Shown here: piece after piece, positions 15,004 to 50,379 of the stretch
Layout of the letters: every line of letters starts with the position of its first letter
How positions within the stretch are numbered: the first letter of the stretch is position 1
The notes under the pieces: generated by a model
Seen by the model: only the letters and a program-made list of their open reading frames with translations
What the model was told of the DNA's origin: nothing
Database searches by the model: none
From: Nitrosopumilus sp.
GTDB taxonomy: Archaea > Thermoproteota > Nitrososphaeria > Nitrososphaerales > Nitrosopumilaceae
Reading direction: 5' to 3'
DNA length: 64,000 nt
NCBI GenBank assembly: GCA_965218785.1
Contig: OZ244650.1
Span: 768,001 to 832,000 of the forward strand
Position numbers and translations under genes: made by a program

Positions 15004-15429
15004 TTAAATTCCCCTCACAGTTGATGGATGAAATCCGATGACTCCGATAAACTCACAGGTCTTTAGCAGCATCCTATCAAAAGTTATTAAAATGAAATTT
15101 TTTGCTTGACAGAGACTGAGAATTTTATTGTCCCCGTTATGGCATATCTGAAACTGCATACTGATATTTCTGGCATTTTCTTTTTCCTGTTTTTCAACTG
15201 TGATAGTCTCTATGCTGCGATTAAGCAGTTTTGCAACAGTTGAGATTATTTTCTGATGTGTAAAACCCCTGACTCTTTGCACCTCGTTTAATACCACATC
15301 GCAGAGGATTACTCTGATCTGTTTTCCCCTTAGACGGGTTTTGAGTTTATAGGCTATTTGCGGCTTTTCAATAATGTCTATTACTACGCATGAATCTAGT
15401 GTAATTTTTTGAATCTGTATCTGTTTCAT
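15004..15429 (-). CDS. PIN-domain protein (VapC-like)
   Basis: TLDSCVVID, VLNEV, GDNKIL, LITFDRML: the PIN acidic tetrad. Confidence 0.85.
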   Translation of the reverse strand: MKQIQIQKITLDSCVVIDIIEKPQIAYKLKTRLRGKQIRVILCDVVLNEVQRVRGFTHQKIISTVAKLLNRSIETITVEKQEKENARNISMQFQICHNGDNKILSLCQAKNFILITFDRMLLKTCEFIGVIGFHPSTVRGI

Positions 15430-40288: not shown

Positions 40289-41446
40289 ATGAAATATGAA
40301 AAAATTACTTTAAAAAATATTGGTCCTATAGAAAAAGGTCAAATTCAGCGTCATAAAATCAATGTATTTTTTGGACCTAATAATTCTGGTAAATCTATGA
40401 CATCTAGACTGATTCATGGTATCGGTCAGCTAAATACTGGTTCTAGAGGTCTTCAAGGAATGGTTAAAAAAGAAATGAATTCACAGAAAGAACTGCATGC
40501 GTTTTATAGATATTCTATTCTAAATAGCGCTGGTCTTGGCATGCAAGATCTCTTATCGTATAAGAAAGAATCATGTCATCTAACTGTCACATTTAGTGGA
40601 AAAACACCTGAAATGGATTTTGGCTTTAAAAAAAACACGTCAATTACTAAAAAACATTTAATGTTACAACACCATGCATCAGTGCTTTCTCAAACTTCAA
40701 GAGACAGTGTGTATATTCCAGCAGGCAGAACTGGAACCATCCAATCTTTCACGAGTATCACTAAAATGAGAAATCAACTTCTTCGAGATCTTTTGGGCTC
40801 TTTTCAAATTGACGATCCTTCTAATATTAAAAAAACATCTGCAAAAGAAATTAAAAACTTTACACGTTCATCAAGTAAGTTACCTGAACATCTGGAACAA
40901 TTCCATGATTTGATTCTTGATACACATGCTAAAGGAATGAGTAAAGACGTTCAAGATTCATTTTCAAATTTACTCCTTGGTTTAATTGAATCTACGGATA
41001 CTGGAGGACTGCCTGAAATAATTTACCGAGATCCGACTGGATTTGTGACTGAAATTGAATCTGCAGGTTCTGGAACGGTGTCATCTTTTCCGATTGTTGC
41101 AGGTGTTCATTGTGTTAACAAAAATGGTATTTTGATTATTGAGGAACCAGAGGCACACTTGGAACCGGCAAAACAGCTTAGGCTTATTGAAGAACTTGTT
41201 ATGATTGCTGAAAAGAAAAAAATAGATTTGATTTTTACAACTCATAGTGATTATGTTGTTAAAAAATTATTGGCACTGGTAAGTAGAAAAAAAATAAAAC
41301 ATAGTGATTTGGGTTTATATTATTTTAATCGAACTCCTACATCCCTAACACATATAGAAAAAATCCCTGTTGATAAAACTGGGGAAGCAGAACAGGCACT
41401 ATTTGAAAACGCACTAGATACACTGGTGGAAGAATTTTCAGAATAA
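40289..41446 (+). CDS. AAA_15/AAA_21 ABC-type ATPase (AbiEii/OLD-like)
   Basis: LKNIGPI, GPNNSGKS, YIPAGR, AGSG signature, IEEPEAHLEP, TTHSDY. Confidence 0.88.
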   Translation: MKYEKITLKNIGPIEKGQIQRHKINVFFGPNNSGKSMTSRLIHGIGQLNTGSRGLQGMVKKEMNSQKELHAFYRYSILNSAGLGMQDLLSYKKESCHLTVTFSGKTPEMDFGFKKNTSITKKHLMLQHHASVLSQTSRDSVYIPAGRTGTIQSFTSITKMRNQLLRDLLGSFQIDDPSNIKKTSAKEIKNFTRSSSKLPEHLEQFHDLILDTHAKGMSKDVQDSFSNLLLGLIESTDTGGLPEIIYRDPTGFVTEIESAGSGTVSSFPIVAGVHCVNKNGILIIEEPEAHLEPAKQLRLIEELVMIAEKKKIDLIFTTHSDYVVKKLLALVSRKKIKHSDLGLYYFNRTPTSLTHIEKIPVDKTGEAEQALFENALDTLVEEFSE

Positions 41447-42080: not shown

Positions 42081-43073
42081 TTGAACGACACTAATAAATC
42101 AAAAGATGCAGAAGACATTTTATCAGAGTTTGATTCTAGAACCAAGCTTGCATCAGAGCCAGAATCCGATCCGGAACCCGAATCTGAGATAGAGCCAGAA
42201 TCCGATCCAGAGCCAGAATCCGATCCAGAACCAGAATCTGAGACAGAGCCAGAATCTCGGCCAGAAGCAACATCCGAACCAAAAGCAGTATTTCATTCAG
42301 AACCAGAAACTGCACAAGCCTCCGAATCAGAACCTGATACTGCACAAGCTTCCGAATCAGAACCAGAGACTGCACTTGCATCAGAACCAAAGGCAACATT
42401 TCAATCAGAACCAGAAACCGCACAAGCCTCCGAATCAGAACCAGAAACCGCACAAGCATCAGAACCAGAAACCGCACAAGCCTCCGAATCAGAACCAGAA
42501 ACCGCACAAGCATCAGAACCAGAAACTGCACAAGCTTCCGAATCAGAACCAGAAACCGCACAAGCTTCCGAATCAGAACCAGAAACCGCACAAGCTTCCG
42601 AATCAGGACTAGAAACTGCACTTGAATCAGAACCAAACACAACATTTCAATCAGAACCAGAAACTGCACAAGCCTCCGAATCAAAACCAGAAACCACACT
42701 TGAAACCGATTCCAAAACCGCACAAACATCCGAATCAGAACCGGAAACCACCATTGAATCTAAACCCCTTGACGAATCTGCCGACTCCACCAAACCTGTA
42801 GAAGACCGTAATGTAATCTTCATTGGTACAAAACCAATAATGGCTTACGTATCGGCAACTTTGACTCAACTCTCAACACGAAAAACTGTGACCATTCAGG
42901 CCAGGGGAAGAAAAATCACGCAGGCAGTTGATGTATCACAAATGATTGTTAAAAGAATGGATTTTGTAGGCTATGTAATCAGTGATGTAAGAATTTCATC
43001 TGCTTCCCTTACCTCTCAAGATGGAAAACAACGTAATGTATCTGTAATAAAAATTGACATTTCAAAAAATTAG
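42081..43073 (+). CDS. Alba DNA/RNA-binding protein with long acidic repeat N-terminus
   Basis: C-terminal IFIGTKPIMAYV...IQARGRKITQAVDV...RNVSVIKI (Alba domain). Confidence 0.88.
   Translation: MNDTNKSKDAEDILSEFDSRTKLASEPESDPEPESEIEPESDPEPESDPEPESETEPESRPEATSEPKAVFHSEPETAQASESEPDTAQASESEPETALASEPKATFQSEPETAQASESEPETAQASEPETAQASESEPETAQASEPETAQASESEPETAQASESEPETAQASESGLETALESEPNTTFQSEPETAQASESKPETTLETDSKTAQTSESEPETTIESKPLDESADSTKPVEDRNVIFIGTKPIMAYVSATLTQLSTRKTVTIQARGRKITQAVDVSQMIVKRMDFVGYVISDVRISSASLTSQDGKQRNVSVIKIDISKN
42150..42770 (+). repeat. Coding tandem repeats: 18-bp EPESDP units, then 30/36-bp (SE)SEPETAQA units
   Basis: Recurrent TCAGAACCAGAAAC(C/T)GCACAAGC(C/T)TCCGAA; unit lengths keep frame. 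Confidence 0.92.
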
Positions 43074-44670: not shown

Positions 44671-44851
44671 TGATTGGTTTTTACATCCATAGAATAATAG
44701 TTTTTACCTAATTTTTTTAATTTTGTAGGATCCGAAAAGTGATTTGCCCCTAGATACGCATGATATCTCTTCTCTCCTGTCCTCTTAGTTTTCCCCTCAT
44801 TTACCCACGAGGAGCAAACCACTTTTTGGACAGAATAAAATTCTTGATTCC

Positions 44852-45351
44852 GGTTCTGTCGGGTTATCGTGATATAGACATGAAATATGGATTTTCTCCA
44901 GATCAGTTATTGTAAAGTTATTGGGAGCTAGAAATGGGCTTGGTGTGTTTTGAACCCACGTAATCCTAAGATAGCTATCTGACAAACAGCCGTGTTTAAC
45001 CTAGCTTTACTACAAGCCCATTAAATGTTAAAATACTACAAGTTAGTAATAATATTATCTGACAAACAGTATCCATAGGAATATGGCGGTGGAATGATCC
45101 AAATTAATTAATTAATTTGGAACTCCACTTTTTTCTATTCTATTCAAACTAGCATTTTGGATCAAAGTAATCCATTTATTCTTACCATCAAGGAGACCAC
45201 ATCATACCTTGGCACAGGGGTGGGAGAACAATCGAAGATAACTGCCAGATAATTTGTAAGGACTGTAATAGTAAAAAAGCAGGTAAATAAGAAATTTCAA
45301 TCTGGAGAAGATCGTTATTTCATGTCTATATCACGATAACCCGACAGAACC
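44852..45351. mobile_element. 500-bp non-autonomous IS6-like element (MITE) with 51-bp TIRs and 8-bp TSD
   Basis: TIRs 44852-44902 and 45301-45351 (GGTTCTGTCGGGTTATCG...; first 36 bp identical, 3 mismatches in 51). TTGATTCC is repeated directly at 44844-44851 and 45352-45359. No transposase inside. Confidence 0.88.
44935..45019 (-). tRNA. Atypical tRNA gene: Leu-type body with long variable arm and GTC (Asp) anticodon; possibly a pseudo-tRNA
   Basis: GGGCTTG/CAAGCCC acceptor plus A73; D loop AGCTAGGTTAA; anticodon arm GCTGT-TTGTCAG-ATAGC; variable arm ATC-TTAG-GAT; T arm GTGGG-TTCAAAA-CACAC (one mismatch); 85 nt. Confidence 0.75.
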
Positions 45352-45385
45352 TTGATTCCTAACTCTTTTTTAGTGGTGCAAATAC

Positions 45386-45529
45386 ATGAGACACATATCC
45401 GATGCAAGACAGGCAGATGATCTCACTCCTGAGGAGATCAAGGATATTGATGAGTTTTATGCAGATGACAAAGGCAGGAAAACAGTGTCTTTTGATGAAT
45501 TCATGAAAGAGCTAAAAGAAGAATCTTGA
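45386..45529 (+). CDS. 47-aa acidic putative antitoxin (RelB-like)
   Basis: MRHISDARQADDLTPEEIKDIDEFYADDKGRKTVSFDEFMKELKEES; stop overlaps a RelE-like start; paralog at 53557-53688. Confidence 0.6.
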   Translation: MRHISDARQADDLTPEEIKDIDEFYADDKGRKTVSFDEFMKELKEES

Positions 45530-45685
45530 GTGACATCTGGAATGCTGCAAGAAAGACAAAATTTCTCAAGCAATACAAAAACCTTGTTCTCAAATTCAGG
45601 AAAGTAAACCATTCAATACGGGAATTACAATCTCGGAGAATCCCACACTCTGGAAAATATAAACAGGACAAACTATTTTTGGGAA
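45526..45685 (+). pseudogene. RelE/ParE-like toxin remnant
   Basis: TTG start, SDIWNAARKTKFLKQYKNL (RelE-like N-terminal F-x-K-x-Y-K-x-L); similarity is lost afterwards. Confidence 0.45.
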
Positions 45686-45689
45686 TAAG

Positions 45690-46631
45690 CTAGTCTTTTA
45701 ATTTTGAAACAAGCGCGGCATAAATGAACGGCAGGATCGTCGTTACCTCGGCATGAAGTGTTGCCTGTTTTGCTTTTCGTGTCACCTTTCCCCAAGAGAT
45801 CGCCTCCCTGACTAGCGCACCGCTAAGGCTGCCGTCAAACTCCTGTGCCGTCGTAATGTAAAACGCATAGTCCAGCCCCTCCCTATACTGGTTCCACCAC
45901 AACGTATGGTGCTTGGAAATGCCCCCTCCAATCATAAATGCTCCTGATTTTTCAGCCTTGAAGATTAATCCAGAAAGTAAGTTTGCATCCCCTGTCATGT
46001 CTAATCTGAAATCATTGTGTTTTTGTGTAAAAAGCCAAATCTGGCTTCCTACTGCGCCATCCATTATTCCTGGAACTATTACACTGACGTCATTTTTGTT
46101 TGCCCAATAAAGAAACGAGTCCGGACCCAGGTGCCTGCCGATCATCTTGCATATTTCTGCAGTAGTCATCTCCCTTTTCCCGTTTTGATACTCTTCTTCT
46201 AAAAATGCCTGCATCTTTTCTTCAATGAGCGGTCCGTAGCTATCCATGGGCACAAGTATGTTGCCCAGTCTGTGGATGTTTTGATCAGCTAGCGCCATGT
46301 CATCCATTGCAAACGAGCCTTCCTTGTAATGTGAGAAATGCCTTGCAATATCGTGATCCAGCGCGCCACAGGTTGTTATGGCAACATCAAACCAGTTGTT
46401 TTTGATCATGTTTTTGATGATTCCCCGCTGCCCTGTTGAAACAACGGCGCCCACAAATGAGACAAATCTGAGACACTGCTTATCTGAGATCATATCAGTT
46501 AGAATCTCCAATCCGTCTGAGAGATTCACAGACTCGAATCCCCCTGACTGGGATAACTCTTCAAAGATTTTCTCTATTGATGAATTTGAATCAATTTCAA
46601 TATCCTTTACAGGTCTGCCTGGGTTTATCAT
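45690..46631 (-). CDS. dys: Deoxyhypusine synthase
   Basis: GAVVSTG-x-R, HRLGNILVP, PGIMDGAVG, GGGISKHH, FDGSLSGA...EAISWGKV, AEVT. Confidence 0.95.
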   Translation of the reverse strand: MINPGRPVKDIEIDSNSSIEKIFEELSQSGGFESVNLSDGLEILTDMISDKQCLRFVSFVGAVVSTGQRGIIKNMIKNNWFDVAITTCGALDHDIARHFSHYKEGSFAMDDMALADQNIHRLGNILVPMDSYGPLIEEKMQAFLEEEYQNGKREMTTAEICKMIGRHLGPDSFLYWANKNDVSVIVPGIMDGAVGSQIWLFTQKHNDFRLDMTGDANLLSGLIFKAEKSGAFMIGGGISKHHTLWWNQYREGLDYAFYITTAQEFDGSLSGALVREAISWGKVTRKAKQATLHAEVTTILPFIYAALVSKLKD

Positions 46632-49815: not shown

Positions 49816-50379
49816 TTGTCCGAACAAATTGATTTCAATGATCCAAACTTGATTAGATTTCAAAGAGTAAAATCACCTGCCGATTTAGATGGATTTAACT
49901 CTGATGTTGTTGAGTTTAATGAATACATTGGTCCGGAGATTGCTTTTGATCTAGAACACAGCATTACACGGGCTTACTTGATTAGAGTTGAAGAGGACGT
50001 TGTAGGATATATTGATTTATCCATGGCTCATCTTAAAAATAATGCAACTCCTGCCATAGCAGATAAACAAATTAAAAGCAATGTTCCGGCAATATTGATT
50101 AGTCATTTGGCTGTAGATGTCGTATTTCAAGGACACGGTGTTGGGAGATTCCTTTTAAAATTGATTATTGATAAATTGATTCCGAAATTAAAAAAAATGG
50201 CAGGATGCAGATATGTAATATTGAATCCAAGAGATGATCAAGGTGTCCGAGATTTTTATATAAATTGTAAATTTGAGTATGTTAAAAAACTCAAAGATGA
50301 CAGAAAACCTGATAATGAATTGGATTTTTGTTTGTTTGATTTGATAGGTATTAAAGAGGAAGATGAGGAATACACCTAG
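49816..50379 (+). CDS. GNAT acetyltransferase, TA-toxin type (TacT/AtaT-like)
   Basis: VVGYI, VPAILISHLAVD-x-x-FQGHGVGRFLL, GCRYVIL, DFY. Confidence 0.85.
   Translation: MSEQIDFNDPNLIRFQRVKSPADLDGFNSDVVEFNEYIGPEIAFDLEHSITRAYLIRVEEDVVGYIDLSMAHLKNNATPAIADKQIKSNVPAILISHLAVDVVFQGHGVGRFLLKLIIDKLIPKLKKMAGCRYVILNPRDDQGVRDFYINCKFEYVKKLKDDRKPDNELDFCLFDLIGIKEEDEEYT

Follow-up and report, generated by a model that had tools for sequence, protein, structure and literature searches.

The locus described here raises the question of how a tRNA gene with a leucine-type body and an aspartate anticodon came to lie inside a transposon-like element, and what it may do there. Nematodes and certain soil bacteria are known to have tRNAs in which the body and the anticodon do not agree (PMC3333845, PMC4300185, PMC5389517), and these reveal how the genetic code can be bent. 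In the literature that we searched, we found neither an archaeal tRNA with such a disagreement nor one located inside an IS6-family element. The best overall explanation, which we hold with slightly more confidence than doubt, is that the window (the whole 64,000-nucleotide stretch of DNA from the ammonia-oxidising archaeon Nitrosopumilus sp. that was analysed) contains an IS6-derived element that carries as cargo a tRNA of a rare class II family, and that this copy is weakly active or decaying.

The element is a 500-bp non-autonomous IS6-family derivative at window positions 44852-45351. Its terminal inverted repeats (TIRs), at 44852-44903 on the plus strand and, by repeat search, at 45300-45351 on the minus strand, are 52 nt each and 49/52 complementary (94%), with 396 nt between them; the earlier note on this DNA had rightly seen inverted ends but gave their length as 51 bp. 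The outer 18 nt of the left TIR, GGTTCTGTCGGGTTATCG, form an IS6-type tip, and its inner part carries the mini-MITE motif of this genome, TGAAATATGGAT(T/C)TTCTCCAGAT, which occurs 43 times genome-wide at up to 5 mismatches. The 500-bp unit with an exact 8-bp target duplication, as described before, is indeed there: TTGATTCC stands at 44844-44851 and again at 45352-45359, while the relatives G009 and G036 have it in single copy. The chance of an exact 8-mer at both junctions is about 1.5e-5. The repeat listing gives the 9-nt CTTGATTCC instead of 8 nt, since the match is fortuitously lengthened by the final C of the right end.

The uninterrupted homologous site, with one ...AAAATTCTTGATTCC followed directly by TAA(C/T)CCTTTTTT..., was located in G009 (= L051) and G036 (= L050), and thus the search for empty sites that the earlier note had proposed was successful in two relatives. 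The flanks are matched by 57 of 60 same-genus genomes, and wherever both flanks share one contig in these genomes the PAC2 and deoxyhypusine-synthase genes are adjacent; in G000 there is about 970 bp of extra sequence between the two genes. The element was inserted as a single unit at the stop-codon region of a gene that lies upstream of a small cassette present in multiple copies. In the contigs assembled from the DNA runs, no joint omitting the element is listed; these contigs end 30 nt inside the inverted ends, so that no junction is formally bridged by them. The locus represents a datable transposition event together with its empty site.

Hallmarks of the IS6 family are GG tips, a cTGTt motif and 8-bp direct target repeats (PMC7986276). 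Both ends of the element have the GG tip and the CTGT motif (GGTTCTGTC...), and together with the 8-bp duplication, the empty site and a PF13610-like tail (83%), they confirm the IS6-type reading proposed from the sequence. The 'caaa' motif given in the available text of that review is absent from the element ends, and related genomic copies have an AAAG-containing version, GGTTCTGTAAAGTTAT. In its GG tips, CTGT motif, 8-bp repeats and association with a DDE_Tnp_IS240 transposase (here a remnant and two genomic loci), the element resembles IS26, IS257 and the MITEs of this family. Short non-autonomous forms are also represented in the text of the review available to us by two MITEs of 227 and 336 bp, whereas the inverted ends given there are 15-20 nt instead of 52 nt (PMC7986276). 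Moreover, the element has captured foreign pieces including an RNA gene, in contrast to the sole passenger-gene member in that text, which encodes a protein (PMC7986276). The archaeal IS6 clades named in the same text belong to Halobacteria, Thermococcales, Methanococcales and Sulfolobales, and this lineage is not among them (PMC7986276); our genome adds many IS6-type mini-elements to it.

With regard to a mobilizing partner, the earlier note had reported no transposase in the unit, and there is in fact no intact gene but merely an 18-aa C-terminal remnant. The genome has two PF13610 (DDE_Tnp_IS240) loci. One is a degenerate IS6 copy at C1:1739866, whose one surviving end matches the element tip at 17 of 18 positions and whose transposase gene is frameshifted; its second end was not found. 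The other is an intact gene of 464 aa, around which no flanking inverted repeats were found. The search for a cognate transposase that the earlier note had suggested thus led to two loci, one of them with a closely matching end, but no complete autonomous IS6 partner with matching ends was found in this genome. The element would have been mobilized in trans by an IS6-type DDE transposase, presumably via the IS6 copy-in pathway.

The tRNA had been taken for the only recognizable cargo. This does not hold, as the interior is a patchwork of three pieces: a transposase tail, a tRNA module of 157 nt and part of a captured HNH nuclease gene. The transposase tail (45139-45192, minus strand) encodes the last part of an IS6-family protein, 15 of whose 18 residues (83%, tblastn E 2e-5) are identical to residues 443-460 of the genome's own 464-aa PF13610 protein; its DNA also matches beside both genomic IS6 transposase loci. 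The tRNA module lies downstream of this remnant in the same orientation, and between the two is an A/T-rich palindrome (45089-45130) with a perfect 12+12 core at 45098-45121, for which Rfam gave just weak chance matches to a microRNA model. On the plus strand, 39 codons (45171-45287) and a stop ending at 45290 encode the C-terminal part of an HNH endonuclease, which matches positions 12-44 of the 47-position profile PF01844 with 49.6 bits; both the start codon and the upstream part are missing. No parent gene of this fragment was found in the genome, and in the phage collection it drew only generic HNH matches, including an ORF of a Nitrosopumilaceae spindle-shaped virus (17/28 identical). A possible remnant of a nested second IS6/MITE end, AGTTATTGTAAAGTTATTGGGAGC, recognized by eye in comparison with genomic end sequences, lies at 44905-44930 on the plus strand and abuts the 3' end of the tRNA.

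The tRNA gene itself (44935-45019, minus strand) is 85 nt long, of class II, with anticodon GUC, A73, a Leu-type variable arm and no encoded CCA; it is supported by ARAGORN, Rfam, homologues and covariation. It is the sole tRNA that ARAGORN calls anywhere in the window (44934-45020 on the minus strand, with anticodon gtc), and Rfam RF00005 matches 44935-45019 over model positions 1-71 with 36.0 bits (gathering score 29, E 2.5e-5). The cloverleaf agrees with the earlier description: the acceptor stem is paired at 7 of 7 positions, the T stem has 5 bp, the anticodon loop UUGUCAG has 7 nt with U33, and the variable arm is AUC-UUAG-GAU. Like the acceptor stem, the anticodon and variable stems are fully paired. 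One mismatch each is flagged in the D stem (A12.C23) and the T stem (G52.A62). Folded by itself, the tRNA does not adopt a cloverleaf as its minimum free energy structure (z -2.3), though such folds are uninformative for tRNAs.

The body of this tRNA is of the leucine type. An ungapped alignment with three host tRNA-Leu genes of 85 nt is possible (46-49/85 identical), and it shares with them the T-stem 5' strand (5/5), A73, and a variable region, UAUCUUAGGAUUAC, that equals the host's UCUCUUAGGAGUUC in length and loop and agrees with it at 11 of 14 positions. These features uphold the previous description of a Leu-type body with an Asp anticodon, as does the family-derived model, whose best non-member matches proved to be ordinary tRNA-Leu genes in all 10 cases checked. 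The anticodon is not that of leucine (NAG/NAA): it is GUC here and UUC or AUC in the homologues. On the other hand, GUC agrees with tRNA-Asp but the class II body and A73 do not, whereas the host tRNA-Asp (C1:373678-373754) has a short variable loop and G73. It is thus a long-variable-arm scaffold with an anticodon for neither leucine nor serine. The word 'chimeric', if it means a recombinant of tRNA-Leu and tRNA-Asp, is not supported, as the family forms a lineage of its own, which has homologues elsewhere and whose stems have changed in a compensatory way.

Archaeal leucine identity consists of A73 and the variable-loop nucleotides A47c, G47d and U47h according to the rules for Haloferax volcanii (PMC9976931). 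Our tRNA keeps A73, the A-G of the variable loop and the basal U, with the variable-arm numbering being our own assignment and the rules being those of H. volcanii, not of this lineage. Archaeal LeuRS presumably reads A73 and the variable-arm loop and would ignore the anticodon. Because these determinants are kept, an expressed copy would be leucylated while pairing with Asp (GAY) codons, and the intact copy from another genus, described below, would pair with Glu codons. The gene may therefore be a naturally occurring example of a tRNA designed for mistranslation, although the window copy looks partly worn.

The element tRNA belongs to a very rare accessory class II family with three known copies. 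Among 401 genomes of the class, a full-length homologue was found in one (G148, another genus; 127/157 identical, E 5e-37), which also has a second copy that is 71% identical. One of these copies is intact (56.1 bits, anticodon UUC, no flagged mismatch) and followed by TTTTTT, and the other is degenerate (AUC); both sit in DNA that is missing from close relatives. The earlier note had named random anticodons and a lack of stem covariation among homologues as signs against a real tRNA. On the contrary, the three anticodons GUC, UUC and AUC differ at position 34 only, and 11 of 40 stem pairs have changed on both sides, compared with 5.5 +/- 1.6 in shuffled controls (0/500 reach it) and 0-2 in slid controls, in a set of three sequences of which one is degenerate. 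The non-random anticodons and covarying stems favour a real tRNA family, and this family has evolved under selection for the cloverleaf. The family model scores its members at 135-182 bits, and the next best match in 150 genomes of the taxonomic family at 70.6 bits.

The wider searches with exact patterns have the limit that such patterns miss diverged family members. The exact pattern of a Leu-type arm with a GTC anticodon had no match in genome_contigs or viral_contigs. The exact leader pattern had two chance matches to unrelated bacteria and one Cenarchaeum sp. record in genome_contigs, and none in the viral set. The exact pattern of the variable and T arms had no match in metagenomes and matched just that Cenarchaeum sp. 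record in genome_contigs, and a two-block leader pattern was absent from metagenomes and viral contigs and returned only the two copies in this same record. A blastn search of the phage collection with the tRNA gave no match, and no transposase remnants were found beside the other-genus copies. About 25 nt downstream of one of these copies (c1) is a sequence resembling an IS6 end, GGTTCAGTAACGTGAT. It seemed homologous by eye but was dropped, since its alignment was matched or beaten by 383 of 3000 shuffles; the motif is not enriched in that genome either (13 occurrences versus 7 in the control). The link between the tRNA and an IS6 end is thus shown in this window only. Neither ARAGORN nor Rfam found a canonical tRNA-Glu(UUC) in this genome or in the other-genus genome, and it is probably hidden by introns; the odd tRNA is missing from 4 of 5 genomes of the other genus and therefore cannot be the essential tRNA-Glu.

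The tRNA is preceded by a conserved 69-nt leader (45020-45088, minus strand), defined by alignment of the homologues. It is 84% identical to that of copy c1, compared with 78% for the tRNA. An exact repeat search revealed that the 14-nt sequence CTGTTTGTCAGATA of the anticodon arm (44976-44989, minus strand) recurs at 45056-45069 on the same strand, at -50 to -37 from the tRNA start; no third exact copy exists in this genome. Directly downstream, at -36 to -27, is an A/T-rich box, ATATTATTAC, where host tRNA genes have a TATA-like box. The 14-mer is exact between both positions in the window module and also in copy c1; the two versions differ from each other at 3 mirrored positions. The identity within a module is 14/14, 14/14 and 10/14, versus 6-11/14 across modules, so that the upstream 14-mer tracks the changes of the anticodon arm in 3/3 modules. 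Among the other host tRNA genes examined (n=41), none has a match of more than 8 nt between its internal and its upstream sequence. The leaders fold no better than shuffled sequences (z -0.65, -1.12 and +1.46), while pair counts hint at leader hairpins 2 and 3. The position of the upstream 14-mer, immediately 5' of the presumed TATA box, suggests that it probably has a role at the level of DNA, as a regulator or recombination site.

Is the window copy worn or active? It is the lowest-scoring of the 40 calls above the Rfam cut-off in this genome, and its G+C content is 44.7%, compared with 45.3-69.3% in 38 host tRNAs. Moreover, a variant at 44955 (C>T, G53A in the tRNA), which breaks the conserved pair G53-C61 and is the sole difference in 1.6 kb, is found in contigs of 2 of the 3 DNA runs containing the stretch, and either allele may be ancestral. 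Judging from these features and the two stem mismatches, the copy is probably decaying and at best weakly active. The mismatches are no proof of decay, however, as the host's canonical tRNA-Asp as parsed also has a 52.62 mismatch in the T stem. Furthermore, the 14-nt repeat is still exact here, which suggests that an identity-keeping process was active until recently and fits poorly with dead cargo. The decaying pseudo-tRNA that the earlier note had allowed for thus suits the window copy in part.

Several other explanations have to be weighed against a rare-family tRNA carried by an IS6 derivative. That the cloverleaf arose by chance, or that a host tRNA-Leu pseudogene drifted to GTC, is very improbable indeed. 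The low Rfam score and low G+C content would agree with it, as would pieces of the variable and T arms that are 87-91% identical over 30-32 nt to tRNA-Leu genes of relatives. However, the RF00005 match has an E of 5e-6 for the whole genome, 4 of 7 acceptor pairs have changed on both sides relative to host tRNA-Leu and still pair, and the other-genus homologues have further compensatory changes and a conserved leader. Homologues, covariation and family-model scores all contradict this idea, and the tRNA is no decayed host tRNA-Leu but belongs to a separate rare family with homologues in another genus. Another alternative is a tRNA in active use: the host LeuRS would leucylate it, and it would serve at GAC/GAU codons with low-level Asp-to-Leu substitution, as a selfish or stress trait or for the benefit of particular genes. 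The three retained leucine determinants, the perfect acceptor, anticodon and variable stems, the compensatory evolution in the family, the A/T-rich box at the TATA-like position of host genes and the fact that all three anticodons pair with codons for acidic residues are all consistent with such use. There are also precedents, as nematode nev-tRNAs are leucylated in vitro (PMC3333845, PMC4300185) and in E. coli, Ser is inserted by bacterial allo-tRNAs that have non-Ser anticodons, of which GUC is one of the most frequent (PMC5389517). We consider it conceivable though unlikely, because the mismatches in its D and T stems, its bottom rank in both score and G+C content and the G53A variant in the population speak against it, an Asp/Glu-to-Leu swap is non-conservative and likely costly, and the family, missing from nearly all relatives, is dispensable. 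The most far-reaching version, to which we give slightly less credence, is a mobile archaeal family of leucylated tRNAs reading GAN (Asp/Glu), carried in this case by an IS6-derived element, in which the co-evolving promoter-proximal copy of the anticodon arm controls expression by autoregulation or by an on/off deletion switch. If true, it would be the first natural module for deliberate mistranslation in archaea and a new coupling of anticodon and promoter.

The repeat itself invites two further readings, both less probable than these. Instead of serving in decoding, the module may be a tRNA-shaped regulatory or decoy RNA whose anticodon arm, perhaps in combination with its upstream copy, is a binding or cleavage site for a factor recognizing anticodon loops. 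Both copies would then stay identical since both must fit one factor (an anticodon nuclease, the toxin of a toxin-antitoxin pair, a synthetase or a modification enzyme), which would agree with their joint evolution in all three modules and with a leader more conserved than the tRNA. The element also adjoins a two-gene multi-copy cassette resembling a toxin-antitoxin pair, an NsnB/AriA-like defence ATPase is 3.4 kb away, and allo-tRNAs often lie beside toxin-antitoxin systems and transposon genes (PMC5389517). But the anticodon arm, GCUGU-UUGUCAG-AUAGC, has only UGUCA in common with that of host tRNA-Asp (CGGCC-CUGUCAC-GGCUG), the upstream copy is 5' of the presumptive TATA box and may escape transcription, and the leaders show no folding beyond that of shuffles. 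Neither small ORF of the cassette matches a Pfam or PADLOC family, and the two other-genus copies have no common protein-coding neighbour. PIN and HEPN genes had been reported nearby, yet the window has a single PIN match, at a distance of about 29 kb, and the sole PF05168 HEPN match in the genome falls beyond the window; a GNAT gene lies 4.5 kb from the element. We regard this reading as improbable. Slightly less probable again is that the 14-nt repeat is an att-like duplication left by site-specific recombination at the anticodon arm, with the tRNA being mainly an integration target that travels with mobile elements. The anticodon stem-loop is a classic target of integrases, and all three modules are in inserted or accessory DNA. 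In thaumarchaea, integrated elements mostly target tRNA genes, via short att sites with a median of 17 bp and down to 8 bp (PMC6563490). Nevertheless, the 66 nt between the repeats, which comprise the promoter region plus the 5' half of the tRNA gene, are far too small for an integrated element, and no integrase gene adjoins any copy. Moreover, both flanks of the repeat are homologous in the three modules, which indicates that the layout is ancestral, and a one-off scar would not stay identical.

The rare-family tRNA carried by an IS6 derivative can be compared with several known systems. Nematode nev-tRNAs are likewise class II tRNAs with a long variable arm and an anticodon for neither Leu nor Ser, and their leucylation in vitro is due to LeuRS not reading the anticodon (PMC3333845, PMC4300185). 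They are, however, eukaryotic, chromosomal and conserved across the phylum, with Gly/Ile anticodons (PMC3333845, PMC4300185), while the present family is archaeal, comprises three copies in accessory or mobile DNA, has Asp/Glu anticodons and is only predicted to be leucylated. Bacterial allo-tRNAs share the long variable arm and many non-cognate anticodons, with GUC in the top three; their genes are often near toxin-antitoxin or transposon genes, and some copies are pseudogenes with broken pairs (PMC5389517). They differ in having an 8/4 or 9/3 acceptor/T branch and Ser identity (PMC5389517), compared with 7/5 and the Leu type here, and an upstream copy of the anticodon arm is not mentioned in the available text of that paper. 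The thaumarchaeal att sites resemble our case in being short direct repeats (median 17 bp) that involve tRNA genes and lie in accessory DNA within the same phylum, but according to the available text they bracket kilobases and usually involve the 3' part of the tRNA (PMC6563490), unlike our 14-nt repeats, which bracket 66 nt and evolve in step. If the tRNA is leucylated, the spread of mistranslating tRNAs by mobile elements becomes directly testable; otherwise, mobile DNA of archaea has in this family a new kind of tRNA-like passenger all the same. Finally, the window copy has two stem mismatches where the intact homologue has none, and a worn and an intact copy of the same tRNA are thus available for comparison.

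A unit of 500 bp (44852-45351) is bounded by inverted ends of 52 nt (44852-44903 on the left, 45300-45351 on the right), which are complementary at 49 of 52 positions, start with GGTTCTGTC and are bracketed by two copies of TTGATTCC (44844-44851 and 45352-45359). Its target lay at the stop codon of an upstream ORF (ending ...KILDS). The flanks of the element were matched in 57 of 60 genomes of the same genus, and in the listed ones with both flanks on one contig a PAC2-family gene abuts the deoxyhypusine-synthase gene (for example, 671150-671668 beside 671656-671963 in G036; also G064, G081 and G007). The genome studied here has about 970 bp extra between these genes (window ~44722-45690), DNA missing from most relatives in the genus, and it contains the element and a small two-ORF cassette. 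At two loci paralogous to this cassette, in G009 and G036, the site is uninterrupted: ...AAAATTCTTGATTCC is followed directly by TAA(C/T)CCTTTTTT..., which is the exact join of the left and right flanks of the element. The 8-bp repeat is a target-site duplication, because these empty sites hold a single TTGATTCC.

A review of the IS6 family names as its marks direct repeats of 8 bp, a cTGTt motif and tips with a G dinucleotide (PMC7986276). There are two loci for PF13610 (DDE_Tnp_IS240) in the genome. One (L021:634-2028; 1217304-1218698 of C1, the contig of the window) is an intact ORF of 464 aa (45.4 bits), unusually long for an IS6-type transposase. Its N-terminal region carries two SWIM-like motifs, CxC...CxH (PF04434, 19.9 bits; cut-off 19.6), and no recognizable inverted repeats flank the gene; it may be a domesticated or atypical relative of IS6. 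The other is frameshifted and retains one end, TGTTCTGTCGGGTTATCG, which matches the element's tip at 17 of 18 positions. Moreover, the element itself holds a transposase remnant of 18 aa (45139-45192, minus strand), 15 of which are identical to the C-terminal end of the 464-aa protein (E 2e-5). The ends, duplication, empty site and remnant together show that the element is a non-autonomous IS6 derivative, bearing out the IS6-type mobile element with inverted ends and 8-bp duplication proposed in the earlier note. Its mobility today is doubtful, since no complete autonomous partner was found in the genome.

The inner part of the 52-nt ends carries a motif, TGAAAT..GATCTTCTCCAGATTGAAA, with 43 occurrences in the genome when up to five mismatches are allowed, and most of them represent mini-elements (about 85-230 nt) that have the ends GGTTCTGT.../...ACAGAACC. 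An inverted partner was detectable within 3 kb for only 5 of the 43. Most mini-elements are about 85-110 nt and a few are longer (224 bp, ~1.5 kb); examples on C1 are 699895-700118, 1292583-1292667 and 885356-886908. Within the window, the motif is found only at the two ends of the element.

The element carries a patchwork of a transposase tail, an HNH fragment and a tRNA module, so the tRNA is not the sole recognizable cargo as had been claimed. The HNH fragment comprises the last 39 codons of an endonuclease gene (45171-45287, plus strand; PF01844, 49.6 bits, profile positions 12-44 of 47), and no parent gene was found in the genome. The tRNA module (157 nt, with a 69-nt leader) lies downstream of the transposase remnant in the same orientation, and an A/T-rich palindrome (45089-45130) lies between them.

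The tRNA, the sole one called by ARAGORN in the 64-kb window (44934-45020, minus strand, anticodon gtc), matched the Rfam tRNA model at 44935-45019 with 36.0 bits (threshold 29; E 2.5e-5), which flagged mismatches in the D stem (A12.C23) and T stem (G52.A62). The acceptor stem (GGGCUUG/CAAGCCC), anticodon stem, 7-nt loop (UUGUCAG), variable arm (AUC-UUAG-GAU) and A73 are all as first described. It aligns without gaps to three 85-nt tRNA-Leu genes of the host with 46-49/85 identities, which cluster in the D loop, variable region (11/14), 5' strand of the T stem (5/5) and T loop, and A73 is common to them. Four of the seven acceptor pairs and the entire anticodon stem are unlike those of host tRNA-Leu with pairing kept. 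Because these divergent stems still pair, origin as a drifting copy of a host tRNA-Leu gene was ruled out.

Among 401 genomes of the class, BLAST with the tRNA and the preceding 56 nt as query gave one full-length homologue, in G148, of the same family and a different genus (127/157 identical). Hits in 72 other genomes (apart from the genome studied) were pieces of at most 46 nt, in the variable and T arms of ordinary tRNA-Leu genes. G148 has a second copy elsewhere, 71% identical. Searching about 185,000 species genomes for exact patterns gave two chance matches and one record, 'MAG: Cenarchaeum sp.', which holds both copies, and no match was found in collections of viruses, phages and metagenomes. 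With a covariance model built from the three modules, members scored 135-182 bits and the best non-member 70.6 bits among 150 family genomes (27 genera), of which G453, G454 and G201 are unpublished and contribute only absence of a member to this tally; the ten best non-member hits were all ordinary tRNA-Leu genes. The first homologue in G148 is intact (56.1 bits, no flagged mismatch, anticodon UUC, followed by TTTTTT) and resides in an insertion of 1.2 kb, flanked by argF and the gene for ribosomal protein L18 and missing from the four other genomes of that genus. The second is degenerate, with part of its 3' side lost and a loop CCAUCAA, and gave no tRNA call by ARAGORN or Rfam; the copy in the element is intermediate between the two. 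Both sides of pairs 6-67, 11-24 and 49-65 differ between the element and intact copies, and among the three modules 11 of 40 pairs show double changes (5.5 ± 1.6 in shuffles, 0/500 reaching the observed value; 0-2 in slid controls). This covariation over three sequences gives modest, consistent support for a selected cloverleaf. The anticodons GUC, UUC and AUC differ solely at position 34, and their codons are all for acidic residues. The tRNA belongs to a real accessory family, albeit a very rare one, in which a Leu-type body is combined with Asp/Glu anticodons. In G148, a repeat (~55 nt; L066:1394-1448) lies 40 nt upstream of the intact module, and that genome has at least nine further copies of it (87-96% identical). 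In the host, a sub-threshold tRNA-like sequence with a broken acceptor stem (C1:923962-924028, minus strand; 27.8 bits) is preceded by ATTATTAC..TTTGTATTTTTTAA, resembling the leader of the module.

In the one archaeon studied, leucine identity is reported to depend on A73, A47c and G47d of the variable loop and basal U47h, with the anticodon irrelevant (PMC9976931). The element and intact copies keep the A73, variable-loop and basal-U features (in our own numbering), so any expressed copy would be expected to be leucylated, yet to pair with Asp codons (element) or Glu codons (intact copy). On its sequence, the tRNA is a class II tRNA with a non-cognate anticodon, a kind known from nematodes and bacteria. 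The closest precedents include nematode nev-tRNAs (PMC3333845) and bacterial allo-tRNAs, for which GUC is described as among the three commonest non-Ser anticodons (PMC5389517). The same report places allo-tRNAs often beside toxin-antitoxin systems or transposon genes and regards some as broken pseudogenes (PMC5389517). Neither an archaeal case nor one inside an IS6-type element was found in the literature searched.

A 14-nt sequence, CTGTTTGTCAGATA, runs from within the anticodon stem (four bases of its 5' strand) through the loop and into the 3' strand (three bases), and an exact second copy is present upstream of the tRNA, at -50 to -37. These are its only exact copies in the genome, and the longest such upstream/internal match in 41 other host tRNA genes examined was at most 8 nt. 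In the intact homologue both copies are CTATTTTTCAGGTA, with the identical three differences at both sites, and in the degenerate one the two copies share 10/14, versus 6-8/14 with the other modules. Every upstream copy is closest to the anticodon arm of its own module, which is concerted evolution. In each of the three comparisons, conservation is higher in the leader than in the tRNA (84 vs 78%, 67 vs 52%, 72 vs 59%). From its position immediately 5' of the presumptive TATA box, the upstream 14-mer is suspected of a DNA-level role, possibly as a regulator site, or as a recombination or deletion site able to remove the promoter and the 5' half of the tRNA. It may instead be an RNA mimic within a long leader, though the leaders folded no better than shuffled ones. 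The repeats are of the size reported for thaumarchaeal att sites (median 17 bp; PMC6563490), but the 66 nt between them is far too little for an integrated element.

The tRNA copy in the element may be an active gene, as its acceptor, anticodon and variable stems are perfect, its 14-nt repeat is still exact, and an A/T-rich box (ATATTATTAC, -36 to -27) is placed like the TATA-like box of host tRNA genes. On the other hand, its Rfam score (36 bits) is the lowest of the 40 calls over the cut-off in the genome (next, 40.5), its G+C content (44.7%) is below all 38 host tRNAs compared, and two stem positions paired in the intact homologue are mismatched. Moreover, three DNA sequencing runs from two studies cover the locus, and over 1.6 kb they differ at a single position: 44955 C>T is present in contigs from X2 and X3 and not X1 (X1 and X3 share a sample). 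In the tRNA this change is G53A, which breaks the near-universal G53-C61 pair. Taken together, weakly active or decaying cargo is the most likely state.

The argument in the earlier note from nearby PIN, HEPN and GNAT genes proved weak: the window has a single PIN match, at 15058-15405, the only PF05168 HEPN match in the genome is outside the window, and the GNAT gene is at 49816-50379. An ABC-type ATPase of 385 aa (40289-41446, plus strand; Pfam AAA_15/AAA_21) gave NsnB (104.7 bits) and AriA of PARIS (72.9 bits) as best PADLOC matches, and no adjoining partner nuclease was recognized. The cassette beside the element (45386-45693, plus strand) has two ORFs of 47 and 55 aa with a 4-nt overlap and looks like a toxin-antitoxin pair; neither ORF matched Pfam or PADLOC families. 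Its paralogues are at C1:321230-321560, 736515-736624 and 1010461-1010729, and also in relatives. An ORF of 330 aa (42081-43073, plus strand) has about 20 tandem acidic repeats (SEPETAQASE-like), and its C-terminal part resembles, by eye only, an Alba-type nucleic-acid-binding domain. Outside the window, another odd GTC tRNA (L060; C1:1290014-1290084, minus strand; Rfam 42.9 bits) has the acceptor GGGCTTG/CAAGTCC, A73, an anticodon loop CCGTCAA (C32, C33) and a short D loop, with no homologue in 80 family genomes (only four from the same genus). With this second odd one, GTC tRNA calls in the genome number three, of which the one at C1:373678-373754 is canonical.
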